64,000 nucleotides of DNA from Defluviicoccus sp. Its GTDB lineage: Bacteria > Pseudomonadota > Alphaproteobacteria > MPNO01. How positions within the stretch are numbered: position 1 is the first letter of the stretch; every line of letters starts with the position of its first letter. Positions 2,138-20,281 of the stretch are shown piece by piece. A model generated the notes under the pieces. It did no database searches. It worked only from the letters and a program-made list of their open reading frames with translations, and had not been told where the DNA came from. Position numbers and translations under genes: made by a program. The stretch covers positions 1,553 through 65,552 of the forward strand of contig JAJDVM010000264.1 of NCBI GenBank assembly GCA_022826125.1, given 5' to 3'.

Positions 2138-3388
2138 CTAATGCAGGTTCGGCTGGGCGCCGGCGCCGTTCTCGTCGATCGTGGCGCCGGTCGCGAAACG
2201 GTCCAGCCGCATCGCCGCCGCGACCGGGTGCGGCGCGCCGGTCGCGATCAGATGGGCGAGGCAGTAGCCGCCCGCCGGGACCGCCTTGAAGCCGCCATAG
2301 TTCCAGCCGCCGTTGAAATAGAGCCCCTCGACCGGCGTTCTGTCGATGAAGGGCGAGCCGTCCATCGACATGTCGACCACCCCGCCCCACATCCGCAGCA
2401 CCCGCGCCCTGCCGATCGTCGGCATGAGCGCCATGCCGCCCTCGCAGACATCCTCGATCGTCGGCAAGTTCCCCCGCTGGGCGTATGAGTTGTAGCCGTC
2501 GATATCGCCGCCGAAAACCAGCCCGCCCTTGTCCGACTGGGAGATGTAGAAGTGACCGCCGCCGAAGGTGATCACCCCCGGAATGACGGGTTTGAGCCCT
2601 TCGGTCACGCAGGCCTGCATGACGTGGCTTTCGATCGGCAGGCGCAGCCCGGCGAGGTTCATCAGGCGGCTGGACGAGCCGGCGACGCAGACCGCCACCT
2701 TGCCGGCGCCGATGGTCCCGCGCGCGGTCTCGACGCCGCGACACGCCCCGTCGCGGATATCGAAGCCGGTGACTTCGCAGTTCTGGATCAGGTCGACGCC
2801 GCGCCGGTCGGCGCCGCGGGCATAGCCCCAGGCGACCGCATCGTGGCGCACCGTGCCGCCGCGCGGCTGCCACAGCCCGCCCTTGATGGGGAAGCGCTCG
2901 TTATCGAAGTCGAGGAAAGGGCATTTCCGTCGCAGCGCCTCGCGGTCGAGCAGGACCGCATCGGCCCCGGCCAGGATCATGGCGTTGCCGCGCCGGACGG
3001 CGGCGTCGCGCTGGGGATCGCTGTGGAACAGGTTGACGATCCCCCGCTGCGAGACCATGACGTTGTAGTTGAGTTCCTGCTCCAGCCCCTCCCACAGCTT
3101 CATCGACAGCTCGTAAAACGGCTCGTTGCCCGGCAGCAGGTAGTTGGAGCGGACGATCGTCGTGTTGCGGCCGATATTGCCGGAGCCGAGCCAGCCTTTT
3201 TCCAGCACCGCGACATCGGTCAGCCCGTGCATTTTCGCCAGGTAGTAGGCGGTGGCGATCCCGTGCCCGCCGCCGCCCACGATGACGATGTCGTAACGCG
3301 GTTTCGGATCGGGCTCGCGCCAGACCGGCTTCCAGCCGCGATTGCCGGTCAGGCCCTGCTTGATGATTTGCGATACCGAATAGCGCAT
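2138..3388 (-). CDS. soxB: sarcosine oxidase beta subunit
   Basis: 416 aa. The N-terminus MRYSVSQIIKQGLTGNRGWKPVW and the FAD-binding motif VIVGGGGHGIATAYYLA are typical of SoxB. ATG at 3388. Confidence 0.95.
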   Translation of the reverse strand: MRYSVSQIIKQGLTGNRGWKPVWREPDPKPRYDIVIVGGGGHGIATAYYLAKMHGLTDVAVLEKGWLGSGNIGRNTTIVRSNYLLPGNEPFYELSMKLWEGLEQELNYNVMVSQRGIVNLFHSDPQRDAAVRRGNAMILAGADAVLLDREALRRKCPFLDFDNERFPIKGGLWQPRGGTVRHDAVAWGYARGADRRGVDLIQNCEVTGFDIRDGACRGVETARGTIGAGKVAVCVAGSSSRLMNLAGLRLPIESHVMQACVTEGLKPVIPGVITFGGGHFYISQSDKGGLVFGGDIDGYNSYAQRGNLPTIEDVCEGGMALMPTIGRARVLRMWGGVVDMSMDGSPFIDRTPVEGLYFNGGWNYGGFKAVPAGGYCLAHLIATGAPHPVAAAMRLDRFATGATIDENGAGAQPNLH

Positions 3389-4475: not shown

Positions 4476-5402
4476 TCAGCCCAGCGCCTGCCGCGCGAGG
4501 AACGACTCGAGCGCCGCGTGGCAGGCGTCCGGGCGTTCGATCTGGAGCAGGTGGCTGGTGTTTTCGATCGGCGTCCACTCGACGCCATGGTCTTCCTTCA
4601 TCGCCCGGCCGACCTTGCCCGGCGCCAGCGCGTGGGGTGCGTCGGGATCCGACGAGATGAAGACGAGCGGTCCCCTGAGCTCGCCCAGGCGCGGGCAGAG
4701 GTCGAGCCCGGCATTGGTGCGGTAGACCCGGGATTCCCCCTCGCGCGGGCAGCACAGAACGTACTCGCCGGTCTCCGGGTCCTCGCGGGTGATCGATCGC
4801 GCCATCAGCGCATGCCCGCCCTCGACCCAGCGCGCGAGACTCTTCGACCGGGCGAAACCGGCGGCGAGCGCCATCGCATCCGGGAAGCGGTCGGGCCGGG
4901 ACGCCGCCCAGTCGGCGAGGCCGAGCTCGAAGGTCCGCGCGACCTCGTGCGCCCGGTGGCCGGGCGAGGGGATCAGCGGCGGGTCGAACAGCGCCAACGC
5001 GTCCCATTTCCAGCCATGCTCCAGCGCATGCCATATGGCCGTCACCGCCGAGATCGAGTGGAACACGCCGACCGTCGGCTTCGGGCCGAAACGGTCCGGG
5101 ATGAGGCCGACCAGCCGGTCCATGTCGGCGACGAAGGCGGGAACGTCGTGGCGGTCCGCGTCGTGGCGCGGGTTGCGGCCGTGATTGCGCTGGTCGTAGA
5201 TCGCGAGATCGTAGCGCTCGGTCAGCAGGCGCCAGAACGGGTAATAGGCGTCGATGGCGAACCCGTTGCCGTGCGCCATCACCAGCCTGGGCCCGTCCGG
5301 GTTGCCGTGGCGGCGCACCCGGATGACGGCGCCGTCGTCCATTTCGGCGTCGAAGCTCTCCGAGGGCTCCGGGACACGGAAGATGTCGGGCGGCGGGTTC
5401 AT
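4476..5402 (-). CDS. alpha/beta hydrolase
   Basis: 308 aa from ATG 5402, forming the tail of track ORF 4476..6110. Motifs: VMAHGNGFAIDAYYPFW, nucleophile elbow GVFHSISA, and C-terminal ENTSHLLQIERP. Confidence 0.8.
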   Translation of the reverse strand: MNPPPDIFRVPEPSESFDAEMDDGAVIRVRRHGNPDGPRLVMAHGNGFAIDAYYPFWRLLTERYDLAIYDQRNHGRNPRHDADRHDVPAFVADMDRLVGLIPDRFGPKPTVGVFHSISAVTAIWHALEHGWKWDALALFDPPLIPSPGHRAHEVARTFELGLADWAASRPDRFPDAMALAAGFARSKSLARWVEGGHALMARSITREDPETGEYVLCCPREGESRVYRTNAGLDLCPRLGELRGPLVFISSDPDAPHALAPGKVGRAMKEDHGVEWTPIENTSHLLQIERPDACHAALESFLARQALG

Positions 5403-6334
5403 GCCACGACTCCGTTCCTCGAGAGGAAATCTTCCACCAAGGCGAAGCACCGCTCCGGCTCTTCGAGCTGCAGCAGGTGGCTGGTGTCGGGCACGCAGGC
5501 GTACTCGATCCCGAAGGTCTCGCTGTACAGCCTGCAACAGGACGCGGTCTTCGACGTGCCGTCGGCCTCCGGGTCGGCGCCCACGATCATCAGCGGACGC
5601 TCCGGCGGGTGGGGTTTCCGCCAGATCGGCAGCTCGCCCACCTCGACATAGAGGCCGGCCTCGACCGGGCCCGGACAGGAGAGCAGCCATTCCCCCGAGG
5701 CCGGATCGAAGCGCAGCGTCGAGCGCGCGTTGAGCTCCGGCACCCCTTTCCGCAGGCGGCGGAACCGGTGCAGGTACCGGAACACGTCGGCAAGCTCGTC
5801 CGGGTCGGGGAACCGGTTCTTGCGGATCAGGGCGGCGTCGCGCAGCACCCCGCCGTCGGTCAGCAGCTCGTCGTGCAGCGGATTGCCTTGCGGCGGGACC
5901 ACCGGCGGGTCGAACAGCACCAGCGCGTCCCAGTGCCAGACGCCGTCCGTGACCGCGAGGAGCGCCGCGATCGCCGACATCGAATGGAAGATGCCGATGG
6001 TGGTCTTCTTGCCCCACTCTTCCGCGATGGCGCCGTGCACCGCCACGTTGTCGCGCGCGAAGCGGCGATAGCCGTGCGGCTCGGCCGCGTGGAACGGGTT
6101 GCGCCCGCAATTACGGAAATCGAACAGGCAGAGGTCGAACCGGTCCAGCATCGGGCGCCAGAACGGAAAGTAGCTGTCGCTCGCGAAGCCGTTGCCGTGG
6201 CTCAGCACGACGCGCGGCCCGGTCGGGTTGCCGTGGCGCACCACCCGGATCGGCGCACCGTCGTCCATCGCGAGGTCGAGGGTCGCGGACGGCTCGGGCA
6301 GGACGAACACGTCCGTTTCCCGCCGAGCCTCCAC
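5399..6334 (-). CDS. alpha/beta hydrolase (paralogue of 4476..5402)
   Basis: Tail of track ORF 5399..7048. It shares motifs with the downstream copy (VLSHGNGFASDSYFPFW, GIFHSMSA, PDTSHLLQLEEP). The start is uncertain, either GTG 6334 or GTG 6310. Its stop overlaps the ATG of the downstream paralogue (ATGA). Confidence 0.75.
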   Translation of the reverse strand: MEARRETDVFVLPEPSATLDLAMDDGAPIRVVRHGNPTGPRVVLSHGNGFASDSYFPFWRPMLDRFDLCLFDFRNCGRNPFHAAEPHGYRRFARDNVAVHGAIAEEWGKKTTIGIFHSMSAIAALLAVTDGVWHWDALVLFDPPVVPPQGNPLHDELLTDGGVLRDAALIRKNRFPDPDELADVFRYLHRFRRLRKGVPELNARSTLRFDPASGEWLLSCPGPVEAGLYVEVGELPIWRKPHPPERPLMIVGADPEADGTSKTASCCRLYSETFGIEYACVPDTSHLLQLEEPERCFALVEDFLSRNGVVA

Positions 6335-6354
6335 GCCGGAACAGGGCGGGGTCG

Positions 6355-8694
6355 TCACCCGCCGCCGTTCCCGGCCGCGGCGATGGCGGCGAGCAGCCGG
6401 CGCGGGGTGACCGGGCATTCGGAGATCTCGACCCCGAGCGGCGCGAGCGCGTCGTTGATCGCGTTGGCGATCGCCGCCGGCGGGCCGATCGCGCCGCCCT
6501 CGCCGATCCCCTTCTGCCCGAAGGTGGTGTAGGGCGACGGGGTTTCCATGTGATCGACCCGGATCGACGGGATCTCGGTCGGCCCCGGCAGCAGGTAGTC
6601 GGCGAGCGTCGGCGCGAGCGGCTGGCCGTCGTCGGCGTAGGGCATCTCCTCGTAGAGCGCGGTGCCGATCCCCTGGCCGGTGCCGCCATGGACCTGGCCG
6701 TCGACGATCATCGGGTTGACCAGCACCCCGCCGTCCTCGCAGACGACGTAATCGACGATCTCCACCTCGCCCGTCGCGGTGTCGACGGCGACGATCGCGG
6801 CGTGGCAGGCATAGCTGAACGTGCCGGAGTCGCGCTCGGGCTTGTAGCCGCCGATCACCTCCAGCCCCTGGCGGTCGACGTCGTCGGTGAGATCCTGCGG
6901 GCGCAGGTACCAGGTGCGGCCGACCTCCTCCAGCGTGACGCTGCCCGACGGGCCGGCCACCTTTCCGTCCTCCAGCCGCACCGATTCGGGATCGACCTGC
7001 AGCAGCCCCGCGCCGATCCGGCGGATGCGCTCGGCGAGCATCCTGCACGCTTCCGCCGACGCGCCGCCCGCCATGATCATGCAGCGCGAGCCCCAGGTGC
7101 CGGTCGAATAGGGGGTGTAGGCGGTATCGCCCAGCACCACCCGCACGTCGTCGGTGTCGATGCCGAGGATCTCGTGCGCCACCTGGGCGAGCGTTGTCTC
7201 GAGCCCCTGGCCGTGGCTGTGGACGCCGACGCGGAGCTCCAGCGCGCCATCCGGCGTGAGCCGCGCCGCCGCCTGCTCGAAGCCCGGGATCATCGGGATG
7301 CCCCAGCCCGAATAGACCGCCGTGCCGTGCCCGGCCTGCTCGCAGAAGATCGAGAAGCCGACGCCCACGCGCCGCCCGTCAGGCTCGCCCTGCGCCTGCC
7401 GCGCGCGCACGCCCGCGACGTCGATCGCCTCGGCGGTGCGGCGGATGCTCTCCGGATAGTCGCCGCTGTCGTAGTGCTTGGCGGTGATGTTGTCGAACGG
7501 CATCCGCTCGGGTCCGATCAGGCTGTCGAGCCGGACCTCGTGCGGCTCGCGCCCGACCTCGCGCGCGATGGCGTCGATCACCAGTTCGAGCGCGAAGCAG
7601 ACGCCCGGCCGCGCGACGCCCCGGAAGGGGAGGATCGGCGGCTTGTTGGAGGCGATCGACCAGGTCCTGCACTGGAACGCGTCCATCAGGTAGGGCCCGG
7701 GCAGGATGGATGCGACCTGGGCCGCCTCCAGGCAGGCCGAGAACGGGTAGGCCGAATAGGCGCCGGCATCGACCGTCGCCTCGGCGTCGATCGCGAGCAG
7801 CCTGCCGTCCGCGTCGGCGTAACCAGTGACGATATAGTGGTGCTCGCGGCAGTTGGCGTTGGCGGTCAGATGCTCCCGCCGGTCCTCCAGCCAGCGCACC
7901 GGGCGTTCGAGGCGTTTCGCGAGCCAGGCGATGCAGACCTCCTCCGGCGCCAGGATCCCCTTGTAGCCGAACCCGCCGCCGACGTCGGGCGCGATCACCC
8001 GGATGCTGGCGAGGTCCATGTCGAGGCATTCGGCGAGCCCGTTGCGGACGATGTGCGGGAGCTGGGCCGCCGAGGTCACGGTGAGCTGGCGCAGCCTCGG
8101 GTCCCATTCGGCGAGCACGCCCTTGCCCTCGATCGGCGCCATGCACTGGCGCGCGGTGCGCACCTCGCGCGTCACCTTGACCGCGGCGCGGGCGGCGACC
8201 GCCTCGATGTCGTCCTCGACGACGGTCTCCAGGAAGACGTTGTCGCCCCAGTGCTCGTGGATCAGCGGCGCGTCGGCGTCGCGGGCGGTCAGCATGTCGG
8301 AGACCGCCGGCAGGATCTCGAAATCGACCGCCACGCTGTCGGCCATGTCCTCCGCCTCGGCCCGGCTGTCCGCGACGCAGATCGCGATCGTCTCGCCCAC
8401 CTGGCGCACCTTTTCCGACGCCAGCACCGGCTGGGACGAGGGCTTGAACCCCGGCAGCGCCGAGACCGCGCGGATCGGCTTGACGCCCGCCATGTCGGCA
8501 TGGGTGAAGACACGCGACCGGATGTCGTCCGGGATGTCGATGCCCCTGATGAGGGCGTGCGCGACGGGGCTCCGGACGAAGGCGGCTTCGAGCTGGCCGG
8601 CGAGGCCGAAATCGCCGACGAAGCGGCCGCGGCCGCGCATCAGCCGGTCGTCCTCCTTGCGGGCGATCGACGCGCCAACCCCCTGATTTGCCAT
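6355..8694 (-). CDS. xanthine dehydrogenase/aldehyde oxidase/CoxL-family molybdopterin-binding subunit
   Basis: 779 aa. The N-terminus MANQGVGASIARKEDDRLMRGRGRFVGDF is typical of this family, and the ORF is long and uninterrupted. Confidence 0.9.
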   Translation of the reverse strand: MANQGVGASIARKEDDRLMRGRGRFVGDFGLAGQLEAAFVRSPVAHALIRGIDIPDDIRSRVFTHADMAGVKPIRAVSALPGFKPSSQPVLASEKVRQVGETIAICVADSRAEAEDMADSVAVDFEILPAVSDMLTARDADAPLIHEHWGDNVFLETVVEDDIEAVAARAAVKVTREVRTARQCMAPIEGKGVLAEWDPRLRQLTVTSAAQLPHIVRNGLAECLDMDLASIRVIAPDVGGGFGYKGILAPEEVCIAWLAKRLERPVRWLEDRREHLTANANCREHHYIVTGYADADGRLLAIDAEATVDAGAYSAYPFSACLEAAQVASILPGPYLMDAFQCRTWSIASNKPPILPFRGVARPGVCFALELVIDAIAREVGREPHEVRLDSLIGPERMPFDNITAKHYDSGDYPESIRRTAEAIDVAGVRARQAQGEPDGRRVGVGFSIFCEQAGHGTAVYSGWGIPMIPGFEQAAARLTPDGALELRVGVHSHGQGLETTLAQVAHEILGIDTDDVRVVLGDTAYTPYSTGTWGSRCMIMAGGASAEACRMLAERIRRIGAGLLQVDPESVRLEDGKVAGPSGSVTLEEVGRTWYLRPQDLTDDVDRQGLEVIGGYKPERDSGTFSYACHAAIVAVDTATGEVEIVDYVVCEDGGVLVNPMIVDGQVHGGTGQGIGTALYEEMPYADDGQPLAPTLADYLLPGPTEIPSIRVDHMETPSPYTTFGQKGIGEGGAIGPPAAIANAINDALAPLGVEISECPVTPRRLLAAIAAAGNGGG

Positions 8695-8771
8695 GCCCCG
8701 CCTTCCCCGAGCCGCTATGGTGCGCGGCGGGTCTTATAGCACAGGGCGCCTCGCGGCGCGGGAGAGGGGCG

Positions 8772-9659
8772 ATGGCGAAGACGGTCGGAATCGTGGGTCT
8801 GGGCCGGATGGGCTCGGCGATGGCGGGGAACCTGATCGAGGCCGGTTTCGAGGTGGTCGGGCGCGATACCGACGAGGCGCGCGCCGACGCGCTGGCGGCG
8901 ATGGGCGGCAAGGTCGCGGAGAGCCCGTGCGCGGTGGCCGAGGCCGCGGACTGCGTGATGACGTCGCTTCCCAGCGTCGCCGCCTTCGAGGCGGTGACCG
9001 CGGGCGCGGACGGGCTCGCGGCGGCGAACAAGCCCGGCCTCGTCGCCTTCGATACTTCGACGCTCCCCATCGCGGTCAAGGAGGCGGGGCGGAAGGCGCT
9101 TGCGGAGGCCGGCGGAGTCCTGCTCGATACGCCGCTCAGCGGCACCGGCGCGCAAGCCATGACGAGGGACCTCGTGGTCTATGCCAGCGGCGACACGGCG
9201 GCCATCGCGAGCCTGACCGACGTGTTCGAGGGGTTCTCCCGCGCCCATTACGACCTCGGCGCGTTCGGCAACGGCAGCCGGATGAAGTTCGTCGCCAACC
9301 TGCTGGTCGCGATCCACAACGTCGCAACCGGCGAGGCCTTCGCGCTCGGCATCAAGGCCGGGCTCGACCCTGAGACGATCTACGAGGTGATCTCCAACAG
9401 CGCCGCCACCTCCCGCATCTTCGAGGTGCGCGGGCCCCAGATGGTCGCCGGCGACTACTCCAAGGCGTCCGCGTCGATCGACATGCAGCTCAAGGACATG
9501 AAGGTCATCGGCGACTTCCTGGCGGAGACGGGCTGCGCCGCCCCCTGCTTCGCGGCCTCGGGGCAGATCTACAACGCGGCGCTCGCGCAGGGGCGGGTGG
9601 CGGAGGACACGGCGTCGGTGTGCGCGGTGCTGGAGGGGATGGCGGGGGTGGAGAGGTAG
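8772..9659 (+). CDS. NAD(P)-dependent oxidoreductase, 3-hydroxyisobutyrate dehydrogenase family
   Basis: Rossmann motif MAKTVGIVGLGRMGSAMAGNL. GGAGAGG lies just upstream of ATG 8772. I preferred the internal ATG to the track start at 8688. Confidence 0.85.
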   Translation: MAKTVGIVGLGRMGSAMAGNLIEAGFEVVGRDTDEARADALAAMGGKVAESPCAVAEAADCVMTSLPSVAAFEAVTAGADGLAAANKPGLVAFDTSTLPIAVKEAGRKALAEAGGVLLDTPLSGTGAQAMTRDLVVYASGDTAAIASLTDVFEGFSRAHYDLGAFGNGSRMKFVANLLVAIHNVATGEAFALGIKAGLDPETIYEVISNSAATSRIFEVRGPQMVAGDYSKASASIDMQLKDMKVIGDFLAETGCAAPCFAASGQIYNAALAQGRVAEDTASVCAVLEGMAGVER

Positions 9660-9699
9660 GGGGTAAATACAATCCACCCCCCGCCATCAGCAGTCTCTC

Positions 9700-10896
9700 T
9701 TACTCTGCAGCTCCAGCGATTGTTTGTTGCCGACTCATCAGATCGTGTTTGATGACGCGCGAGTGAAGATTTGACCAGTGATTGCGACTCTTTCCGACAG
9801 ACTGCGGATTACGGCCTAATTCATTGCTGGTTTGAACCGTTGCGCGCATCAATTCGCCCCCGAGCTCATTCCAAGCAGTTAAAACGGTCGCGAAACCACC
9901 ACGCCATTTCATTTTACCGGACATAGAGTCGTCTTCTACGTACCAACGAAATGCGGCCATCATTGGGTAAAGCGCACCCGGGGCGAGACGAAATTCATCT
10001 TCTTCGTCCGTAAAGAGGAACCGATACTTCCCACGCTTGCGCTGGTCTACGAAAGCTAGTGAGCCGCCCTTGGTATTCGGTAACTTATTGTAAAGCTGTC
10101 GACCTTGCTTCCCCACAATATCGTGAAAACGCAAAATGTCCTTCAGAATTGGAGCCATCCGTCTAAAGCTTCCTTCTTTCTCCTCAAAAATCTTGAGCGC
10201 CGCCGATTTTTTTTCGTATGCCGCAATCGGGTGTTCTTCACGGTCGTTTGGAAATTCAGCGACATTGAAGCATAGCAACATACTGATGATATCACGAGCA
10301 TCGTATTCCCCTTTGTCATTCTCTGACCAAGCAATTTTTTCGAAATACGATTCCTCCTGGAGTAGGTCCTTCACCCACTCGAAGCGCCTAGCGAGGTTGT
10401 CCAAGCTCATATCTTGAACCTGAACGGAGGTATTGAGACCACCCGCTATTTCGGGAATCCAACTTTCCGGAATTCCTACCCTTATCTCAACATTTACGTA
10501 TTGTTTGTCGGTCAACTCTTCATTATTCTGATTCTTTACGATCAGTTCGTATGTGTGCCCTCCATCGACAATTCCATGAATTCCGGACTCCATCGTAACC
10601 TCGTACTTACGGCTGCCTAACTGCTTGACCGACGCGGCAACAATTGTGATCCCTTTGTTCTTGAGGTGAAAGGTTCCTATTTCACTTCCATCTTGCTGTA
10701 GAAGACTTTTTTCTACATCGCGGTAAACGCGCTTCGAGATATTGGGTCGGCGTGCATTTGGATCGAGGCCTATCCCTGTCGGAATCGACTTCACCGGCAT
10801 CACAAACAGATGCCGTTCAGCATTATACTGAGATTTGAAGTTGGGGTCCGGTATGCGCCGCGCGTATTCCGGAGCGAACGTGAACGTGCTTGACAT
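9700..10896 (-). CDS. AIPR-like (abortive infection phage resistance family) protein; family assignment tentative
   Basis: A 398-aa ORF with A/T-rich codons. A strong SD (GAAAGGAGAATATC) precedes ATG 10896. Motifs FHLKNKGITIVA, GIVDGGHTYELI and GGLNTSVQVQD resemble the remembered AIPR core (NNGITI / IVNGxQT). The CDS itself is near certain; the family call is not verified. Confidence 0.7.
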   Translation of the reverse strand: MSSTFTFAPEYARRIPDPNFKSQYNAERHLFVMPVKSIPTGIGLDPNARRPNISKRVYRDVEKSLLQQDGSEIGTFHLKNKGITIVAASVKQLGSRKYEVTMESGIHGIVDGGHTYELIVKNQNNEELTDKQYVNVEIRVGIPESWIPEIAGGLNTSVQVQDMSLDNLARRFEWVKDLLQEESYFEKIAWSENDKGEYDARDIISMLLCFNVAEFPNDREEHPIAAYEKKSAALKIFEEKEGSFRRMAPILKDILRFHDIVGKQGRQLYNKLPNTKGGSLAFVDQRKRGKYRFLFTDEEDEFRLAPGALYPMMAAFRWYVEDDSMSGKMKWRGGFATVLTAWNELGGELMRATVQTSNELGRNPQSVGKSRNHWSNLHSRVIKHDLMSRQQTIAGAAE

Positions 10897-10971
10897 GATA
10901 TTCTCCTTTCAATGCTGCCATCCAGCAGCTCGGTTCATGAATATCTGTCCTCGAATCCACGAGGCAGACAT

Positions 10972-10989
10972 GTTGCTTTATAAAGCAAC
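10972..10989. promoter_or_regulatory. perfect 18-bp palindrome GTTGCTTTATAAAGCAAC centred on the -10 element (candidate operator)
   Basis: An exact inverted repeat read directly from the sequence. Additional GTTGCT half-sites occur at 11023-11028 and 11076-11081. Confidence 0.45.
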
Positions 10990-11005
10990 GAGCGACAGAT
11001 GTCAA
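10977..11005 (-). promoter_or_regulatory. near-consensus sigma70 promoter of the AIPR-like gene
   Basis: The minus strand reads TTGACA (11005-11000), a 17-nt spacer, then TATAAA (10982-10977), about 80 nt upstream of ATG 10896. Confidence 0.6.
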
Positions 11006-11166
11006 GTAAAAAAAGAGGATGCGTTGCTAATACCAAACATTATTTGCACTCGTTTCTGGAGTCATCTGAGTAGGAGTTGCTCTGCGAGCCAAGGAAATTG
11101 ATGTGCTAACGATCAGCAGGGCGCGGGTGAGCGACGGAAGAAGTTCTGCACGTCGCGGCATCCCGG

Positions 11167-11604
11167 TCAGTCGGGCAGGGATTCCAAGGGATTTATGGCC
11201 TCGACACCCAGCGGTCCAAAATGACGCAGGTTGCGGGTGAGGACTGTGAAGTTCCGGCTTCCCGCCGTCGCCGCGATGGCAAGATCGGCGAAGCCGGGCG
11301 ATTGGCCCGTCGCGCGCGCCTTGTCCATGAGCGGTCCGGCGAGGTTGGCGGCTTCCATGTCGAACGGGATGACCCGGTCGCCGTAGAGATGGAGCACGAG
11401 GTCGAGCCAGTCGCCGAGGCGAGTTGCCCTGGCGGCGGCGCCGGTGCGTTCCAGCCTGGCGATGCCGTGCCGGATCTCGGCCACGGTGATCGTGGAGAGG
11501 AACAGCACGTCCGAGCGCGCGTCCATCCACTCGACCAGCGCGGCCGGGCGTTCCCGGCGGCCGGGCGCTCCGGTCGAGAGAATGTCGGTGTCGACCAGGT
11601 ACAC
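11167..11604 (-). CDS. vapC: type II toxin VapC (PIN domain ribonuclease)
   Basis: 145 aa. The N-terminal acidic PIN motif is (V/M)YLVDTDIL. The sequence continues ...TITVAEIRHGI...FADLAIAATA...TVLTRNLRHF. It follows a small antitoxin gene. GTG start at 11604. Confidence 0.85.
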   Translation of the reverse strand: MYLVDTDILSTGAPGRRERPAALVEWMDARSDVLFLSTITVAEIRHGIARLERTGAAARATRLGDWLDLVLHLYGDRVIPFDMEAANLAGPLMDKARATGQSPGFADLAIAATAGSRNFTVLTRNLRHFGPLGVEAINPLESLPD

Positions 11605-11650
11605 GACGGGCAGAAACAGCGGATACGATTCCGCCTGAAACGGAGGCGTT

Positions 11651-11893
11651 CTATAGCCCCGCCTCGCGCGGCGGGGCGGTGTCGCGCGGGGGCAGGTCGC
11701 CGTCCTCCAGCTCCGAGGCGAGCAGCAGGCGGCCGAAGGACGGGACGTTGCTGAGGCGGTTCCATTCGTCGATTCCGACGATCACGGCCCGCGGCTTGCC
11801 GTGGCGGGTGACGATCGTCGCCTCTCCCTCGGCGGCTCCGTCGACTAGGGCGGACAGTCTGGCCTTGGCCTCGCGCAGCTGGACCTGTCGCAT
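11651..11893 (-). CDS. type II antitoxin (Phd/YefM-type) paired with VapC
   Basis: 80 aa from ATG 11893: MRQVQLREAKARLSALVDGAAEGEATIVTRHGKPRAVIVGIDEWNRL... This is the real tail of the artefactual 427-aa track ORF 11651..12934. Confidence 0.75.
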   Translation of the reverse strand: MRQVQLREAKARLSALVDGAAEGEATIVTRHGKPRAVIVGIDEWNRLSNVPSFGRLLLASELEDGDLPPRDTAPPREAGL

Positions 11894-12004
11894 CGGCAAT
11901 CCCCGTTTGTAACCAATGTAGTCACAATATAGGGCCATGCTCCGGCCGCGCAACCGGCGTCTGTCGCCGGTACAATGCGGCCCGGGAAAGGCGGAGAAAA
12001 GACC

Positions 12005-12946
12005 ATGAAAGTCGCGGCGGCGCACGATTTCCATGACGAGGTGGCGGCGAAAGCCGAGACGATCTGCCCCGGCATCGAATGGGCGCTGACCGACCGGGCC
12101 GGGAACTGGACCGCTTCGCCCGAGGGCGCGGACATCGCGATCTACGCGGGCGATGCCTATACCGAGGCCTTCGTCGACACCGCGATCGCCATGGCGCCGC
12201 CGCCGAAATGGGCGCATACCGAGGACGCCGGGATCGACGGGCTGTTCTACGACGACATGCGGGCCAAGGGGGTGGCGGTCACCCACAGCCCCGGCGCCAA
12301 CGCGCCCGAGGTGGCCGAGTTCGCCTTCGCGGGCGTGATGTGGGGCGCGAAGCGGCTGGCCGAGTTCCGCGACCAGCAGCGTGCGCACGAATGGAACCAG
12401 CTCAAGCAGGCGGCGCTCGGCGCATCCACCATCCTGGTCGTCGGGCTCGGCGCCATCGGCGGCCGCGTCGCGGCTTACGCGCGCGCCTTCGGGATGACGG
12501 TGCACGGTATCCGCCGCTCCGCCGAGCCGGTCGCCGGGCTCGACCGGCAGGGGACGCTCGACGATCTCGCCGACTTCCTTCCGCAAGCCGATTTCGTGGT
12601 CCTCGCCGTTCCCAACACCGGCGAGACCGCCGGCATGATCGGGGCCGAGGCGCTCGCCCGCATGAAGCCCAGCGCCACGCTGGTCAATGTCGGGCGCGGC
12701 GCGCTGGTCGACATCGAGGCGCTCAGGGACGCGCTCGGCTCCGGCGGCATCGCCCAGGCCTTCGTCGACGTGCTGCCCACCGAGCCCTGGCCCGCCGACA
12801 GCGACCTCTGGGACATCCCCAACCTGTTCATCTCCCCCCACGCCGCCTGCATGACGCCGCTCTACACCGTTCGCGTCGGCGAGATCTGGCTGGAGAACCT
12901 CAAACGCTTCCTCGCCGGCGAGGCGCTGATCCACCGGGCGTTTTGA
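12005..12946 (+). CDS. D-2-hydroxyacid dehydrogenase family NAD-binding protein
   Basis: NAD motif ILVVGLGAIGGRVAAYARAFGMTVHGI. The catalytic region reads LVNVGRGALVD...FISPHAA. ATG at 12005 (MKVAAAHDF). Confidence 0.85.
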   Translation: MKVAAAHDFHDEVAAKAETICPGIEWALTDRAGNWTASPEGADIAIYAGDAYTEAFVDTAIAMAPPPKWAHTEDAGIDGLFYDDMRAKGVAVTHSPGANAPEVAEFAFAGVMWGAKRLAEFRDQQRAHEWNQLKQAALGASTILVVGLGAIGGRVAAYARAFGMTVHGIRRSAEPVAGLDRQGTLDDLADFLPQADFVVLAVPNTGETAGMIGAEALARMKPSATLVNVGRGALVDIEALRDALGSGGIAQAFVDVLPTEPWPADSDLWDIPNLFISPHAACMTPLYTVRVGEIWLENLKRFLAGEALIHRAF

Positions 12947-13029
12947 GGGGCGGGCTCGTCAAGGCGCTGTCCTTTAAACCTTGTCTGACAGTACGTATCA
13001 TTCACAAAAGACAGCTTGGGAGGATTCTC

Positions 13030-13305
13030 ATGCAACGAGTCACGTCGCGTGAGTTCCAGCGGAATTTCGGACGCTTCCAGGACGAAGCCTTGAAGTCACC
13101 CCTCTCGATTACCCGTAACGGAAGGGACCGGCTCGTGGTCCTTTCCGTCGAGGAATACGAGCGTCTGAAGCGCCGGGATCGCCAAGCCCTCGCCGTCGAG
13201 GAACTGACCGACGCCGAGATCGACGCGATACGCCGGGCCGAACCCCCGCCCGAAGCCGAGCTCTACGACCACGAATTCTCCCCCGGGCATGGCGCGGATA
13301 CCTGA
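13030..13305 (+). CDS. type II antitoxin, Phd/YefM family
   Basis: 91 aa: MQRVTSREFQRNFGRFQDEALKSPLSITRNGRDRLVVLSVEEYERL. GGGAGGA lies upstream of ATG 13030. This is the tail of track ORF 12079..13305. Confidence 0.8.
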   Translation: MQRVTSREFQRNFGRFQDEALKSPLSITRNGRDRLVVLSVEEYERLKRRDRQALAVEELTDAEIDAIRRAEPPPEAELYDHEFSPGHGADT

Positions 13306-13723
13306 CCCGGAACCGGGCCTCGTCATCAACTACGGTTATCTCTGGCTCCGCGAGGCAGCGCGGGGTCGGGACGAGGGAACCAAGGACCGGCCCGCCGTCA
13401 TCGTCGTGGCGGTGGAGGGGGTCGACGACGAGACCAAGACAGTCTGGGCCGCGCCAATCACGCGCAGTTTTCCCAACAGCCGTGAGACGGCGATCGAGAT
13501 CCCCGTGGCGACCAAGCGCCGCCTCGGGCTCGATCCGGACCGGTCGTGGATCGTCCTTTCGGAAATAAACCGATTCGAGTGGCCCGGTCCGGATATTCGA
13601 CCCGTCGCGCCGGGGAAGTGGGCCTACGGGCTGCTCCCTGCGAATCTGTTCCGTGCCGTCCGGGATCGACTCGCAACGCTGGCCGGCGAGCGCAGAACCA
13701 GACTGGTCGACCGAAATCCCTGA
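13289..13723 (+). CDS. PemK/MazF-like toxin (tentative)
   Basis: 144 aa, overlapping the antitoxin gene by 17 bp. The pattern PGLVINYGYLW...EGTKDRPAVIVVAV...VWAAPITRS...DRSWIVLSEINRF fits the MazF/PemK SH3-like fold signature as I remember it. Confidence 0.55.
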   Translation: MARIPDPEPGLVINYGYLWLREAARGRDEGTKDRPAVIVVAVEGVDDETKTVWAAPITRSFPNSRETAIEIPVATKRRLGLDPDRSWIVLSEINRFEWPGPDIRPVAPGKWAYGLLPANLFRAVRDRLATLAGERRTRLVDRNP

Positions 13724-13813
13724 ACTCGCTCTTACGAACCCTAATCGCCCCGTAGCCAACCCGCCTTGCGCGCCCTAAATTCCTCCATACGCCCCACCCG
13801 CCGCGAGCGCCGC

Positions 13814-14404
13814 ATGTCCGATCGCAAAGTCACGATCATTCTCGCCACCGTGTTCATGGCGATCGCCGTGGCGGCGATCGTCGCGGTCTATGTGTGGCGC
13901 GACGAGGGCGGCGGGATCGCGAAGATCGGCGGGCCGTTCACGCTCGTCGACCACACCGGGCAGGAGCGCACCGAGGCCGATCTCAAGGGGCGGCACGCGC
14001 TGATCTATTTCGGCTACAGCTTCTGCCCCGACGTGTGCCCGACGGCGCTCGCCGACATGCTGATCGCGCTCGACGAGCTCGGCCCCGCCGCCGCCCGGGT
14101 GCAGCCGGTGTTCATCACCATCGACCCCGACCGCGACACGCCGGCGGTGCTGAAGGACTACATCCCCAACTTCCACCCGAGGCTGATCGGGCTTTCGGGC
14201 AGCGCCGCCCAGGTTAGCAAGGCGGCGCGCGCCTACCGGGTCTACTACGCCAAGGTCGACGACCCCGAGGCGGGCGAAAACTACCTGATGGACCACTCCT
14301 CGGTGATCTACCTGATGGACCCCGACGGGCGCTATCTCACCCATTTCAGCCACGGCAGCGGGCCGGACACGATGGCGAAGCGCCTGCGCGAGCTGGTGTC
14401 CTGA
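13814..14404 (+). CDS. SCO1/SenC family copper chaperone / thiol-disulfide protein
   Basis: An N-terminal TM helix is followed by the motif [11 protein letters not shown] and then [18 protein letters not shown] at 13814. Confidence 0.9.
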
Positions 14405-14412
14405 GGCCCGCG

Positions 14413-14847
14413 ATGGCCGAGCCCTACTGGCGGACCAAGACGCTCGAGGAGATGACGCGCGCCGAATGGGAAGCGCTCTGCGACGGCTGCGCGCGCTGCT
14501 GCCTCCTGAAGCTGGAGGACGAGGACACCGGCGAGATCGCCTATACCGACATCGCCTGCCGCCTGCTCGATACGGGGACCTGCCGCTGCACGCGCTACCG
14601 CCAGCGGCTGCGGCTGGTGCCGGAATGCGTCGACCTCACGCCGGAACAGGTGCGGAGGCTCGGCTGGCTGCCGTCCACCTGCGCCTACCGGCTCCTCGCC
14701 GAGGGCCGGGACCTCGCCTGGTGGCACCCGCTGGTCTCGGGCGATCCGGAGACGGTCCACAAGGCGGGCATCTCGGTGCGCGGTCGCGTGGTGCCGGAAC
14801 GGCGCGGCGACGATCCCGAGGAGCGCATCGTCACCTGGCCGGAATGA
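14413..14847 (+). CDS. YcgN-family cysteine cluster protein (UPF0260)
   Basis: 144 aa with the characteristic CDGCARCC...CRLLD..TCRCTRY pattern. Confidence 0.85.
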
Positions 14848-17800
14848 GCTCTTCCGCCGGTCGCGGCGCCTCCTCGCGCGCCGGCGGCACCGGCCAGGAC
14901 CGGCGCAGCCTCTCCTCCTCGCGGCGCGCTTCCTCGGCGCTCCGCGCCTTGACCGGCCCGTAGCCCCGGATCTTCTCCGGCAGGCCCGCCAGTGCCACCG
15001 CGGTTTCGTAGTTCGCCTCGGTCAGCCCGCCGGCGAGCTCCTCGACGAGGGCGGCGTACCAGTCGATCAGGTCCCGTTCGAGGCGCCGGTCGGGGCTGCG
15101 CGCGAACGGATCCAGCGGCCCGCCGCGCAAGCGCTTCATCCGCGCCAGCACGCGGAACGCCGCCATCGTCCACGGTCCGAAGCTGCGCTTCCTCGGCTCG
15201 CCCGTGGTCGGGTCGGGTCGGCGGAGCAGCGGGACCGCTAGGTGGAAGGAGAGCCGGAAATCGCCCTCGAACTGCGCCTTCAGCTTCGCCGCGAAGGCGG
15301 GGTCGGTGTAGTGCCGGGCGACCTCGTACTCGTCCTTGTAGGCCATCAGCTTCGCCGCTCCGCGCGCGACCGCGCCGGCGAAATCGAGCGGGGAATCGCC
15401 GAGCGCCCGGTCCGCCGCCCCGGCGCGCGCGACGAGGGCACGGTAGCGTTCCGCGTAAGCCGCGTCCTGCCAGGCGGTGAGCAGCGCCGTCCGGTCCTCC
15501 ACGATCTCCTCGAAGGTCTCGGCGACGGATTCCGGTTCCTGCGCCGCGCCCGCCCGGTCGAGGACGGCGCGCACCTCGTCCGGCCGGGCGGCCTGGGCCC
15601 GGCCCCAGCCGAGGGCCTGCTTGTTGGCCTCGACCGCGACCCCGTTGAGCTCGATCGCGCGTTCGAGCGCGCCGATCGAGACCGGGAGCAGGCCGCGCTG
15701 GGCGGCGTAGCCCACCATGAACATGTTGGTCGCGATGGCATCGCCCAGCAGCGCCGTCGCGGTCCGGGTCGCATCCACCAGCTCGGTCAAATTGTGCCCC
15801 GCCGCTTCGCGGATCGCGTCGAACAGCCCGGCGCGGTCGAACACCGTGTCGCCGTCGAGGGTGAAGGCCGCGGTCGGCGCGACGTCCCGGTTGACCACCG
15901 CGCGGGTCCGCCCGCGCCCGAGCTTGGCGAGCGAGTCGAAGCTTCCCGCGGTCACCGCGTCGCAGGCCAGCAGCAGCCGCGCCTTCCCCGCCGCGATGCG
16001 CACCGCGTGCAGGTCTTCCGGGGCGGCGGCGATCCGGACATGGCTCACCACCGCCCCGTTCTTCTGCGCGAGCCCCGACTGGTCGAGCACGGTGACGCCC
16101 TTGTTCTCCAGATGCGCCGCCATGCCGAGGATCGCGCCGATGGTCACCACCCCGGTGCCGCCGATCCCGGTCACCAGCACGTCCCACGGCTCGTCGAGGT
16201 CGGGCCGGTCCGGTTCCGGCAGCCCGGTGAGCAGTCCGGGGAGCGCGTCGCCGCCGGCTTTCGCGCGGCGGATTTGCGCACCGGTCAGCGTCACGAAGCT
16301 CGGGCAGAAGCCGTTGACGCAGGACAGATCCTTGTTGCAGGAGGACTGGTTGATCCGGCGCTTGCGGCCGTATTTCGTCTCCAGCGGCTCGATCGAGACG
16401 CAGTTCGACTTGACCGAGCAGTCGCCGCAGCCTTCGCACACCGCGTCGTTGATGAAGATCCGCACGTCCGGGTCGGGCGCCGTGCCGCGCTTGCGCCGCC
16501 GCCGCAGCTCGGCCGCGCAGGTCTGGTCGTAGATCAGGACGCTGACCCCTTCGGTCTCGCGCAGCGAACGCTGGAGGGTATCGAGCTCGTCGCGGTGGTG
16601 GATCCTCAGTTTGCCGGGGAAGGCGGGGCGGCCGGTGTACTTGCCGGGGTGGTCGGCGACGACGACGACCCTCGCGACGCCCTCGGCCAGCACCTGGGCG
16701 GCGATCTGCTGCGGGGTGACGGTCTGGGGCTGGCCGCCGGTCATGGCGACGGCGTCGTTGTAGAGCACCTTGTAGGTGACGTTGACGCCGGCCAGCACCG
16801 CGGCGCGGATCGCGAGGATGCCGGAATGGTGATAGGTGCCGTCGCCCAGATTGACGAAGACGTGGTTCTGCTCGGTGAACGGCGCCTGGCCGATCCAGTT
16901 CGCCCCCTCGCCTCCCATGTGAGAGTAGGTGGCGGCCTGGCGGTTCATCAGCAGCGCCATCCAGTGGCAGCCGATCCCCGCCTCGGCGCGGCTCCCGTCC
17001 GGCACCTTCGTCGACGTGTTGTGCGGACAGCCGGAGCAGAAATAGGGCGTGCGCTGGAGCTGCGGCACATAGCCGGACAGCGCGCGTTCCTTGGCCTCGA
17101 TCTCGTCCAGCCGGTCGGCGATCCGGGCGCTCGCATGGTAGCGCCCGATGCGCCCGGCGATGACCCGGGCGATCGTGGCGGGGGTGAGCTCGCCGGCGGC
17201 CGGCAGCAGCCAGTTCCGGTCCTCGTCGAACTTGCCGACGATCCTGGGACGCGCGCTTTCCTTCCAGTTGTAGAGCTCGGCGCGGAGCTGGTTCTCCATC
17301 ACCGCGCGCTTCTCCTCGACGACCAGGATCTCCTCCAGCCCGTCGGCGAAGGCGCGCGTCCCCCGGCGCTCCAGCGGCCAGACCATCCCCGCCTTGTAGA
17401 TCCGGATCCCGAGTTCGGCCGCGCCGTCCTCGTCGATACCGAGATCGTCGAGCGCCTGGCGCACGTCGAGATAGGATTTCCCCGCGGTCAGGATGCCGAA
17501 GCGCGGCCTGGGGCTGTCCCATACCGTGCGGTCGATCCGGTTCTCGCGCGCGAAGCGGAGCGCGGCGTAGATCTTGTCCTCCTGCAGCCGCGCCTCGATC
17601 TGGAGCCGGTCCTCGCCGAGCCGGATCGCTGCGTCGGTCGGAACCTCGTCCTCCGGGACGACGATTTCGAGGCGGTGCGGGTCGACGGTCACGCTGGCCG
17701 AGCTCTCCACCGTCTCGGTCAGGCACTTGAGCCCGATCCAGGTGCCGCAATAGCGCGACATCGCCCAGCCGAGCAGCCCGAAATCGAGATATTCCTGCAC

Positions 17801-18325
17801 CGAGGCCGGGTGCAGGACCGGCATCATCAGGGCCGCGAAATTGTGCTCCGACTGGGTCGGCAGGGTGGACGAGACCGCGCCGTGGTCGTCGCCCACCAGC
17901 GCGAGGACCCCGCCGTGCAGCGAGGTGCCGGCGGCGCTCGCGTGGCGCATCGCGTCCATCGACCGGTCGAGCCCCGGCCCCTTGCCGTACCAGATCGCGA
18001 ATACGCCGTCATAGCGCCCGCCCTGGAACAGGTTGACCTGCTGCGAGCCCCAGACCGAGGTCGCCGCCAGGTCCTCGTTGAGGCCGGGCTCGAAATGGAT
18101 GCGGTTCTCCTCGAGGAAGGAGCTGGCGCGCCAGAGCGCGGTGTCGTAGCCGGCGAGCGGCGAGCCCCGGTAGCCCGAGATGAACCCGGCCGTGTTCAGC
18201 CCCGCCGCGGCGTCGCGCTTCCGCTGCATCAGCGGGAGCCGCACCAGCGCCTGGGTTCCGGTCAGGTACACCCGGCCGGATTCGAGCGTGTACTTGTCGT
18301 CGAGCGTGACCTGCGCCAGTTCCAT
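14831..18325 (-). CDS. indolepyruvate ferredoxin oxidoreductase family protein (fused alpha/beta)
   Basis: 1164 aa. The N-terminus [34 protein letters not shown] is typical. Ferredoxin-type cysteine clusters are present (CSGCPHN, CEGCGDC). Confidence 0.9.
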
Positions 18326-18436
18326 GAAGCCCTTCCCGGACGGCGATTTTGCCCGGCCCTTCGATCTTGCCGATAAAATGGGGATTCCGCGCGGCTATGG
18401 GAAGCGCCGCCGGCCCCGTGCCCACAAACCGGGCGC

Positions 18437-20281
18437 TCAGCGAGCCGCGTCCCGCATGAAGGCCCGCCAGATGCGCGCCGGGAGGCCGCCGCCGGTGACT
18501 TTCTTCATCGGCCGGTCGTCGTCGTTGCCGACCCAGACTCCGGCCACCAGATCGCCCGCGAACCCGACGAACCAGGCGTCGCGGAAGCCCTGGCTGGTGC
18601 CCGTCTTGCCGGCCTCCGACCCGCCCAGCCGCGCCGCGCGGCCGGTGCCGCCGCGGACGACCTCCCTCAGCATGCGCCGGAGCGCCTGCGCGCGGCCCTT
18701 CTCGATCACCCGGGCCTGCGGTCCGCCCGTCCGCCGGTAGAGCCGCTTTCCGCCCACCGCTTCCACCGACGCGATGCCGTAGGGCCACACCGCGACCCCT
18801 CCGTTGGCGACGGCGGCATAGGCCGCGGTGAGCTCGATCAGCGTGACTTCGCTGGCGCCGAGCGCGAGCGAGGGGTGGGGCGCGATCGGCGTGGTGATGC
18901 CGAGCCGGCGCGCCGCGTCGATCACCCGGCGGCGCCCCGCGCGCTCGCTCACCTGAACCGCGACGCTGTTGATCGACCTGGCGAAGGCGCGCCGGAGCGG
19001 CATCGCGCCGTGGAAGCGGCCGTCATAGTTGCGCGGCCGCCAGCCGGCGACGCGGACCGGCTTGTCGACGAAGACGCTGTCCGGCACGAGCCCGGCTTCG
19101 AGCCCGGCGAGATAGACGAACAGCTTGAAAGCCGAGCCCGGCTGGCGCCGCGCCTGGGTGGCGCGGTTGAATTGGCTCGCCGAATAGACGCGCCCGCCGA
19201 CCATCGCGCGAACCGCGCCGTCGAGCGACATCGCCACCAGGGCCACCTGCGAAACCCGGCGGGTCTTTTCCTCCTTCTCAAGCAGGGTACGGGCGTGGCG
19301 CTCGGCGATGCGTTGCAGCCGCGCGTCCATGGTGGTGCGGATCTCGACATCCCGCGACGTCCGTCCGATATACCCGACCGCCCGCTCCAGCGCCCAGTCG
19401 GCGAAATAGCGCGCGCCGGTCCCGGTCTCCGCGCGGAGGCGGAGCGGCGTCCGCCGCGCCGCCCGTGCCTCGGCTTCGGTGAGTTTCCCGGCATCGACCA
19501 TCGACCGCAGCACGCGGAGCCCGCGCTCTTTCGCCGCGTCCGCGTCCCGCACCGGCGAATAGCGCGACGGCGCCTTCAGAAGTCCCGCCAGCACCGCCGC
19601 CTCGAACAGCGAGAGATCGCCGACCGTTCCGCCGAAATAGCGCCTCGCGGCGGCCGCGACGCCATAGGCGCCAGAACCGAAATAGACCCGGTTGATGTAG
19701 ATCTCGAAGATCTGGCGCTTGGAGAACCGGGCTTCGAGCCAGAGCGCGACGATCGCCTCCTGGATCTTCCGCCTGACCGTCCGGTCCGGCGTGAGGAACA
19801 GGTTCTTGGCGAGCTGCTGGGTCAGCGTGCTGCCGCCCTGGCGGATCTTCCCGGCGCGGATATTGGCGACCGCCGCGCGGAGGATGCCCCAGACGTCGAT
19901 CCCCGGATGCTCGAAGAAGCGCCGGTCCTCGATCGAGCTGACCGCCTCGACGAAAAAGCCCGGGAGTTCGTCGAACCGGACCGCGCCGCCATAGAGCTGG
20001 CCGTAGCGCGCGAGCGTCGCCCCGTCGGCGGTTCTGAGCAGCACCGCCGGCCGGCGGGTCGGCGTCTCCAGCCGGGACAAATCGGGCAGGTCCCAGGCGT
20101 ACCAGGCGACCGCGCCGCCGGCGGCGACGCCGATCCAGATGCCGAGCACCAGGGTCCATCGGGCGAGCCTCGCGACCCAGCCGCGCCGCGCGGGACGACG
20201 TGCGCCGGGCTTCGCCGCCCCGCCGGGTTTGCGGTCCGCCCCTCCCTTTCCGTCCTGTTTCCCGGTTTGCCGCCGTGCCAT
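18437..20281 (-). CDS. class A penicillin-binding protein (PBP1A family transglycosylase/transpeptidase)
   Basis: Glycosyltransferase motifs EDRRFFEHPG and GGSTLTQQ. Transpeptidase motifs SAFK, SIN and KTGT. An N-terminal TM anchor is present. Confidence 0.9.
   Translation of the reverse strand: MARRQTGKQDGKGGADRKPGGAAKPGARRPARRGWVARLARWTLVLGIWIGVAAGGAVAWYAWDLPDLSRLETPTRRPAVLLRTADGATLARYGQLYGGAVRFDELPGFFVEAVSSIEDRRFFEHPGIDVWGILRAAVANIRAGKIRQGGSTLTQQLAKNLFLTPDRTVRRKIQEAIVALWLEARFSKRQIFEIYINRVYFGSGAYGVAAAARRYFGGTVGDLSLFEAAVLAGLLKAPSRYSPVRDADAAKERGLRVLRSMVDAGKLTEAEARAARRTPLRLRAETGTGARYFADWALERAVGYIGRTSRDVEIRTTMDARLQRIAERHARTLLEKEEKTRRVSQVALVAMSLDGAVRAMVGGRVYSASQFNRATQARRQPGSAFKLFVYLAGLEAGLVPDSVFVDKPVRVAGWRPRNYDGRFHGAMPLRRAFARSINSVAVQVSERAGRRRVIDAARRLGITTPIAPHPSLALGASEVTLIELTAAYAAVANGGVAVWPYGIASVEAVGGKRLYRRTGGPQARVIEKGRAQALRRMLREVVRGGTGRAARLGGSEAGKTGTSQGFRDAWFVGFAGDLVAGVWVGNDDDRPMKKVTGGGLPARIWRAFMRDAAR

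Follow-up and report, generated by a model that had tools for sequence, protein, structure and literature searches.

Why does a tract of low G+C content holding a single gene lie between two convergent genes of a GC-rich genome, and how is that gene controlled? The question is raised by a 64,000-nucleotide stretch of Defluviicoccus sp. (contig JAJDVM010000264.1, a metagenome scaffold, positions 1,553 to 65,552), hereafter the window, in which the tract, at 9686-11119, carries a gene of the AIPR family (abortive infection phage resistance, PF10592). A preliminary description of the same DNA had seen in it an uncharacterised single-gene anti-phage module brought in by a clean insertion. We found that the tract fills a chromosomal defence hotspot as its present cargo, with breakpoints at the flanking stop codons, and the candidate single-gene defence module now has much stronger contextual evidence than it had before. 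The cargo is self-contained, consisting of a putative promoter, a structured 5' leader and one minimal AIPR gene, with neither a HEPN domain nor a partner protein, and we consider it probable (about 0.6) that it constitutes a tightly riboregulated single-gene defence module. The leader, a family-specific structured RNA that had not been reported, is the most interesting new feature of the locus.

A variable defence slot after a dehydrogenase gene

Relatives of the locus were found through the dehydrogenase gene that ends just before the tract, and nine of them were examined. Ranked by the identity of this gene, they include the following occupants of the slot:

L079, dehydrogenase 98% identical: SIR2-family gene
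L080, 96%: NmeDI_C / type II restriction endonuclease (REase)
L089, 95%: unknown 273-aa gene
L090, 94%: unknown 423-aa gene
L081, 93%: DarG and DarT
L082, 89%: 699-aa GmrSD_N-SLFN protein (PADLOC HEC-05)
L077, 87%: AIPR
L091, 85%: empty, a 41-bp GC-rich spacer between two stop codons

Across ten genomes the slot is found in eight states. The flanking genes are 85-98% identical, while the interval after the dehydrogenase stop varies between strains, and every cargo in it is of low G+C content; SIR2, REase_II, HEC-05, DarG and DarT are called among the cargos by PADLOC. Core-gene-flanked chromosomal defence hotspots have been described for the E. coli and Pseudomonas pan-genomes, and what characterizes them, namely conserved core flanks, alternative defence-enriched cargos of low G+C content, an empty state and no dedicated mobility genes, was also found here. 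The window slot differs from them in being very small, one gene between two convergent stop codons, and in lying in an uncultured alphaproteobacterial lineage, nested with variable toxin-antitoxin (TA) modules. Since the slot holds SIR2, REase_II, DarTG and HEC-05/GmrSD-like genes in relatives, a defence role of the AIPR gene is strongly suggested.

When the window is compared with L079-L082, homology stops at 9663-9669 and restarts, where vapC is present, at 11167-11169; in relatives that also lack vapBC it restarts near 11994-12002. The features of the slot and of its flanks are:

8772..9659, plus strand: left flank, conserved, NAD-binding beta-hydroxyacid dehydrogenase-like gene
9664..11166, no strand: variable cargo segment of the defence hotspot, from dehydrogenase stop to vapC stop, delimited by the homology ends and by the other cargos in relatives
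9686..9693, plus strand: left ATCAGCAG copy, judged a chance match, internal to variable DNA
9700..10896, minus strand: AIPR-only protein gene, 398 aa (open reading frame (ORF), PF10592), with an N-terminal domain (residues 1-160) containing DGGHT and a C-terminal alpha/beta-helical domain
11112..11119, plus strand: right ATCAGCAG copy, judged a chance match, internal to variable DNA
11167..11893, minus strand: right flank, vapC (PIN, 11167-11604) and vapB (PhdYeFM, 11651-11893)

The right cargo edge is imprecise, about 11119 to 11166, and 11120-11166 is weakly similar to the empty-site spacer.

That a 1.4-kb element was recently inserted by a transposition-like event, duplicating an 8-bp ATCAGCAG target, had been proposed from the repeat that lies at both ends of the low-GC tract. 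The octamer is in fact present at 9686 and 11112, near both composition transitions, and one relative has an empty dehydrogenase-vapC junction. It is, however, not a meaningful boundary: because homology ends at 9663-9669 and restarts at 11167-11169, both copies are internal to variable DNA, 22 nt and 47 nt inside it by the breakpoints against the four relatives with other cargo, and the junctions lie at 9663/9664 and 11119-11166. The plus strand of the window holds five copies of ATCAGCAG (three beyond the two noted), and an exact 8-mer is common to 6.6%-32% of random zone pairs 1430 bp apart, a chance of 6-32%, and to 5.6% of shuffles of the actual edge zones. The repeat is absent at both edges of the syntenic AIPR-bearing L077 and from the empty site of L091, and at least six other cargos occupy the slot with an identical left breakpoint. 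Inspection of the ORFs and repeats of the tract agreed with the earlier statement that there is no integrase, transposase or terminal inverted repeat. The model of transposition with target-site duplication is largely refuted, and we regard such an event as highly improbable. The breakpoint pattern would rather fit an exchange of cargo in which DNA taken up by the cell undergoes homologous recombination within the conserved flanks, which would account for the lack of an integrase, of inverted repeats and of a real duplication.

The sharp drop in base composition is real: a windowed run gave a 48% G+C tract within a 70% G+C window (0.477 for 9686-11119 versus 0.700 across the remainder), and the three lowest 1-kb windows of the entire 64 kb fall within it. 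The sole sizeable, sensible ORF, 9700-10896 (minus strand, 398 aa), includes the motifs cited in the preliminary description and has a G+C content at third codon positions (GC3) of 0.52, versus 0.95 for the adjacent dehydrogenase. This is, however, no specific sign of a recent event, being a trait of the AIPR family and of all alternative cargos. We sampled 70 AIPR neighbourhoods, from Alphaproteobacteria, Acidobacteriota, Chloroflexota, Actinomycetota, Planctomycetota, Nitrospirota, Omnitrophota, Gemmatimonadota, Ignavibacteria and others, and in 68 of 68 loci the AIPR gene is lower in G+C than its flanks (mean difference -9 points; r = 0.82 between gene and flank G+C across loci). Low G+C is therefore a property of the family and gives no timestamp for the window copy.

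Over window 4478-19418, L077 keeps synteny at 86-90% nucleotide identity, with AIPR at the same place. The proportion of synonymous differences (pS) between the two is 0.80, i.e. saturated, in the AIPR gene versus 0.15-0.34 in five flanking genes. With a nonsynonymous divergence (dN) of 0.11 against a saturated pS, both AIPR copies are therefore under purifying selection. The L077 allele is nearer to that of L003 (86% aa), which lies at an unrelated locus between hydantoinase and rhomboid genes, than to the window allele (82% aa). Plain vertical inheritance of AIPR with L077 was rejected on this pS contrast and on the gene tree; the two genes are therefore not simple vertical orthologs, and the slot was refilled or the AIPR alleles were swapped. 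The GC3 bias of the flanks probably lowers their pS somewhat, and the gene-tree incongruence is independent of that.

Further observations concern the surroundings of the slot. Two cargos of low G+C content, at L089:5846-6667 (plus strand, 273 aa) and L090:5485-6756 (plus strand, 423 aa), have no Pfam or PADLOC match and count as candidates for new defence genes. A perfect inverted repeat of 11 nt, GATGGCGGGGG / CCCCCGCCATC, at 9638-9648 and 9678-9688, spans the dehydrogenase stop codon, with one arm within the end of the coding sequence and the other in cargo-proximal DNA; it may be a bidirectional terminator hairpin, and L077 has a different, G-run/C-run hairpin at the equivalent site. The vapBC right flank is not universal, being missing in L079, L081 and L090. 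Beyond it lie a 2-hydroxyacid dehydrogenase gene and a second TA pair, so that the TA neighbourhood described earlier stands. This pair, PhdYeFM (13006-13305) with a PemK/MazF-like toxin (13289-13723), occupies a second variable slot (window 12954-13752) between the 2-hydroxyacid dehydrogenase and SCO1, which measures only ~130 bp in L077 and holds RelB with YafQ/ParE, a lone PhdYeFM or nothing in other relatives (L079-L082, L090, L091).

A twin GGA-hairpin RNA leader

Upstream of the AIPR gene we identified a structured cis-regulatory RNA motif, previously undescribed, which is strand-specific, covaries and keeps a fixed position relative to the gene. Its parts, and the putative promoter before it, are:

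10897..10968, minus strand: 5' leader with the twin GGA-loop hairpin motif (covariance-model hit 10894-10968, ATG included)
10902..10908, minus strand: Shine-Dalgarno AAGGAGA, with a third GGA (sequence reading)
10914..10929, minus strand: hairpin 2, GCUGC-UGGAUG-GCAGC, its 3' end 17 nt ahead of the start codon
10944..10968, minus strand: hairpin 1, UCUG-CCUCG-UGGAUU-CGAGG-A-CAGA (lower stem, upper stem, GGA loop, 1-nt bulge)
10977..11005, minus strand: putative sigma-70-type promoter TTGACA-17 nt-TATAAA (sequence reading)

Among the closest loci, DNA homology stops exactly at the stop codon of the gene and reaches ~110 bp upstream of its ATG. The leader is identical at 63 of 75 positions (84%) between the window and L077, versus 47% for third codon positions at identical residues, and it folds with -27.5 kcal/mol (z -2.1). 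At least one GGA-loop hairpin was found in 61 of 69 leaders and at least two in 42 of 69, whereas shuffles gave 19.5 and 2.0 (maxima 33 and 7), the opposite strand 5 and 0, and eight other loop trinucleotides at most 23 and 4. Hairpin spacing is conserved as well, with 3' ends ~50-55 nt and 13-26 nt ahead of the start codon. When 33 leaders were aligned with MAFFT, 89.7% of the cells were paired, versus 57.8% in shuffles (0 of 500), and 16 of 16 pairs show compensatory double changes, slid controls being 32-47% paired; the lower stem past the bulge, not used when the sequences were chosen, is also supported. For the 71 sequences hit by the covariance model, in an alignment fitted to that model, the figures are 87.6% versus 52.7%.

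The window leader itself scores 68.9 bits (E 1e-14) against the covariance model (R1). Both strands of 1.08 Mb contain 71 matches at E up to 1, in 63 of 76 sources, and all 71 lie on the gene strand upstream of an AIPR ORF; no match was found elsewhere in the 1.08 Mb, the rest of the window included, with a model specific to the whole architecture. The motif also stands before AIPR in three viral contigs. It precedes none of the other hotspot cargos, and Rfam 15 holds no matching family for the leader (window and four other loci). A reading of the hairpins as an operator in double-stranded DNA is disfavoured: the arms covary, the asymmetric loops are kept on one strand only and the element lies between promoter and Shine-Dalgarno, all of which argues for an RNA element.

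The putative promoter would place the start of transcription just 5' of hairpin 1. Its TTGACA is kept in L003, L077 and L005, and a consensus promoter scanner omitted 10977-11005, where the -10 hexamer ends in A. An 18-bp palindrome, GTTGCTTTATAAAGCAAC (10972-10989, minus strand), overlaps this hexamer, with two more AGCAAC copies upstream (~11020-11085); it is not conserved in L077 or L003, and may be a copy-specific operator or chance. In L026 the motif (3113-3191) is found ~0.5 kb before the AIPR protein match begins, and in L057 (6167-6241) ~1.3 kb before the expected gene start, the match there covering residues 148-386 only. These distances suggest insertions or disrupted copies.

In 14 low-GC loci (L044, L051, L053, L055, L056, L060, L062-L067, L070 and L075), from Nitrospirota, Planctomycetota, Chloroflexota, Omnitrophota and Ignavibacteria, the covariance model matches twice, ~120-200 nt upstream of the AIPR start. 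The order is promoter, motif copy A, mini-ORF, intrinsic terminator, motif copy B and AIPR ORF. Copy A carries an extended Shine-Dalgarno (AAGGAGGUGAU), very strong in all 14 loci; the mini-ORF has 1-6 codons (MKLI*, MV*, M*, MKKEFL* and others) and the terminator begins 2-20 nt past its stop. A consensus scanner confirms promoter and terminator in L060 and the terminator in L064. We infer that the duplicated leader adds a layer of ribosome-dependent transcription attenuation, in which ribosomes translating the mini-ORF would cover the terminator's 5' arm, a repressor on copy A would prevent this masking, and copy B would add translational control over AIPR.

The AIPR protein and its family

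The AIPR likeness first noted from a few motifs was confirmed by a Pfam scan: PF10592 matches residues 44-323 of the protein with E 3.3e-22 and 80 bits, versus a gathering score of 25, over profile positions 1-273 of 308, and is present in 120 of 120 listed homologs. Both the KGITI-type strand and the (D/N)GxxT motif at a strand-helix junction, which mark the AIPR core, were found. One search returned 1421 homologs and another 1083 cluster representatives (50% identity), 192 of them with E < 1e-30 and nearly all of 380-420 aa; NCBI labels family members plainly "AIPR family protein", and the short AIPR-only architecture is a deep, well-populated family. Residues F76, H77, K79, G82, G108, D111, G112, H114 and T115 are invariant in 53 sequences, while in 57 diverse sequences G108 and G112 remain invariant, with H114 and T115 at least 90% conserved. 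The top-conserved polar residues (R13, N47, R49, H77, D111, G112, H114, T115, Q132, N155 and Q159) all belong to the N-terminal domain.

With this protein as query, NCBIfam gave no match, PHROGs nothing useful and PADLOC a weak and partial AbiU match (E 0.0059, 13.8 bits, profile positions 256-368 only). Canonical AIPR proteins are said to contain a HEPN domain. A C-terminal HEPN RNase, suggested by SRNHWSNLH, which fits Rx6H, was rejected: of 56 diverse members only 28 have R371 and only 28 have H378, and HEPN models give no match. The protein resembles AbiU1/AIPR proteins (PF10592, COG1479 relatives) in its significant match, its conserved core and DGGHT, the counterpart of the NGxQT-type motif of the family. 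It differs from Lactococcus AbiU1 in its length (~400 versus ~590 aa), in having no HEPN or other fused domain and in its gene, which is solitary, outside restriction-modification operons and provided with its own RNA leader. The length of ~590 aa, the extra domain and a full AbiU model match, which characterize canonical AbiU1-type proteins, were not found, and the window protein is an AIPR family member, not an AbiU1-type protein.

An AlphaFold2 model based on a 53-sequence alignment reached a pLDDT (predicted model confidence) of 91.5, or 91.9 for the N-terminal domain alone. Foldseek against the PDB returned no match at E < 0.1 for either the full model or the N-terminal domain, a PDB sequence search and a 53-sequence profile search (E up to 10) were empty, and Pfam ParBc, DUF262 and DndB gave none at E up to 1. 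Among the predicted viral structures of BFVD, Foldseek ranked phage AIPR proteins first (E 8e-9 and 4e-6); next, at E 2e-3 to 1e-1, came GmrSD-N/DUF262, ParB/sulfiredoxin and DNA-sulfur-modification (DndB-like) proteins. A ParB/sulfiredoxin fold, suggested earlier from the DGGHT motif, agrees with these weak viral matches and with the assignment of AbiU1/AIPR/COG1479 and of the DndB N-terminus to the ParB superfamily (PMC3632139; PMC3506569), but was not confirmed by comparison with solved structures or with the Pfam ParB/DUF262 models. A ParB-like fold of the modelled N-terminal domain seems plausible. The ParB-superfamily NTPase domains of DndB and DUF262 proteins (GmrSD-N, SspE-N, BrxU) likewise have an Asp-Gly motif at a strand-to-helix junction; the window motif, DGGHT, is without the arginine of DGQQR/DGQHR, and the locus is without the HNH/DUF1524 nuclease and the dnd/ssp partners of those systems.

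The gene is solitary, as first described: we found no conserved partner gene, the largest family of neighbouring ORFs being present in 4 of the 70 loci. Some AIPR copies are phage-borne, since in L083:4275-7164 (IMG/VR) the unit, with its leader motif (42.5 bits), stands directly 3' of a large terminase gene (phrog_9, E 6e-94). Phage carriage as the chief vehicle was rejected, and appears rare, with three IMG/VR loci and three weak GenBank phage matches. In a 76%-identical alphaproteobacterial locus (L005:7640-7715) the unit directly follows tRNA-Ala(GGC), and an IS3-type transposase pair lies downstream of AIPR in L004 and L005, a typical island context unlike that of the window. Remote short AIPR genes (26-32% identity) were found on Firmicutes plasmids (L086, NC_019385.1; L087; L088), including 5.6-kb Enterococcus plasmids, with a Z1-domain gene 3' of the AIPR gene in L088. 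The RNA motif is absent from this clade and a divergent HTH regulator is present in 3 of 3 inspected loci, in place of the motif, which suggests that tight control is generally required for the AIPR gene.

Role of the module and rival explanations

The AIPR family has been linked to defence regions (PMC2292703; PMC3506569) and is treated in the literature, from the 2008 paper on, as a defence-associated domain only (PMC2292703). A mechanism for the domain was not found in the literature consulted, and the uncharacterised status first noted was borne out by the lack of a PADLOC system, an NCBIfam match, a solved structure or an experimental paper. We hypothesized, from location, family association and composition, that the AIPR protein is an anti-phage effector, probably of the abortive-infection type. 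Its N-terminal domain, diverged ParB-superfamily-like with an invariant DGGHT pocket, would bind or hydrolyse nucleotides or nucleic acid, and the leader would be a translational operator for an RNA-binding repressor, keeping a potentially toxic protein silent. The repressor may most simply be AIPR itself (autogenous control), since motif and gene travel together across more than 15 phyla and no other gene sampled is preceded by the motif; this is not decisive, and a CsrA-type host protein is the main alternative. AIPR could then be freed or over-produced when infection perturbs the leader RNA or titrates the protein. Taken together, AIPR and the twin GGA-hairpin leader might form a self-contained, RNA-controlled immune module whose protein binds its own leader and, in some lineages, a terminated decoy transcript, a proposal that we advance tentatively.

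Several points weigh against a riboregulated defence module. No nuclease, NTPase or RNase model of Pfam, PADLOC, NCBIfam or PHROGs matches the AIPR protein; the best ParB-like match in the PDB is PadC (6ryk), with a TM (template modelling) score of 0.34-0.39 and E 1.9; literature searches for experimental studies of short AIPR proteins gave domain mentions only; and the recombination proposed for the slot is read from breakpoint positions solely. In addition, GGA-loop hairpins beside a Shine-Dalgarno are a textbook CsrA site, CsrA dimers binding two short GGA-loop hairpins that often include the Shine-Dalgarno (PMC7366521; PMC13443453). The leader could accordingly be a site for a host global regulator of the CsrA/Rsm type, which would wire the gene into host post-transcriptional control: its layout is exactly that of CsrA/RsmA leaders, two short GGA-loop hairpins upstream of and close to a GGA-containing Shine-Dalgarno, and CsrA is, according to the literature, common in Planctomycetota and other phyla of the sample. 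We nevertheless find this rather doubtful, as the motif is equally strong in alphaproteobacterial and actinomycetotal hosts, while CsrA is reported to be rare in Pseudomonadota other than the gamma class, some proteobacterial classes being without it. Actinomycetota, to our knowledge, lack CsrA. The bases ahead of GGA are mostly C or U instead of the consensus A, no other gene in the 1.08 Mb has the motif, though the model is specific to the whole architecture, and the AIPR motif differs from CsrA/RsmA leaders in being tied to one mobile gene family, across phyla often without CsrA, and in its fixed architecture of lower stem, bulge, upper stem and set spacing.

The hairpin RNA could also be an antitoxin or sponge for a toxic AIPR, as in type III TA systems, decaying once a phage stops transcription of the host; the antitoxin RNA of the 14 duplicated loci would then be the short transcript ending at the terminator. 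Those loci do resemble ToxIN-type systems, and ribosome-dependent attenuators as well, in their promoter, structured RNA, intrinsic terminator and protein gene, no protein antitoxin was found and the AIPR gene lies among TA modules. The window copy, however, has a single motif and neither terminator nor mini-ORF, tandem antitoxin repeats are absent from the AIPR loci, no RNase or endoribonuclease domain was detected, and the upstream copy, always accompanied by a very strong Shine-Dalgarno and a mini-ORF, speaks for attenuation coupled to translation rather than for a pure sponge; we consider such a system unlikely. It seems similarly improbable that the protein is no defence effector at all and acts as a nucleotide-modulated regulator like DndB, or as a selfish addiction gene hitch-hiking in variable regions. 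DndB, an ATP-modulated transcriptional regulator that shares the AIPR/ParB-like domain (PMC10853773), provides a precedent, and no effector domain is recognisable in the AIPR protein; on the other hand, dnd/ssp or other partners are absent in the 70 loci, apart from AIPR the slot holds bona fide defence genes, and copies of the gene occur on phage and plasmid DNA.

With a minimal, 1.5-kb, single-protein version in a demonstrable hotspot, the AIPR domain becomes experimentally tractable, and the hotspot nominates two cargo proteins without known domains as new defence candidates. The leader is a candidate for a new class of cis-regulatory RNA, with strong covariation and an unusually clear genetic association, and it represents a rare case in which a defence gene is accompanied by its own riboregulator across phyla. 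If the protein does bind its own leader as proposed, the module would represent a hitherto undescribed, riboregulated form of abortive infection and would give a first functional handle on the AIPR domain.

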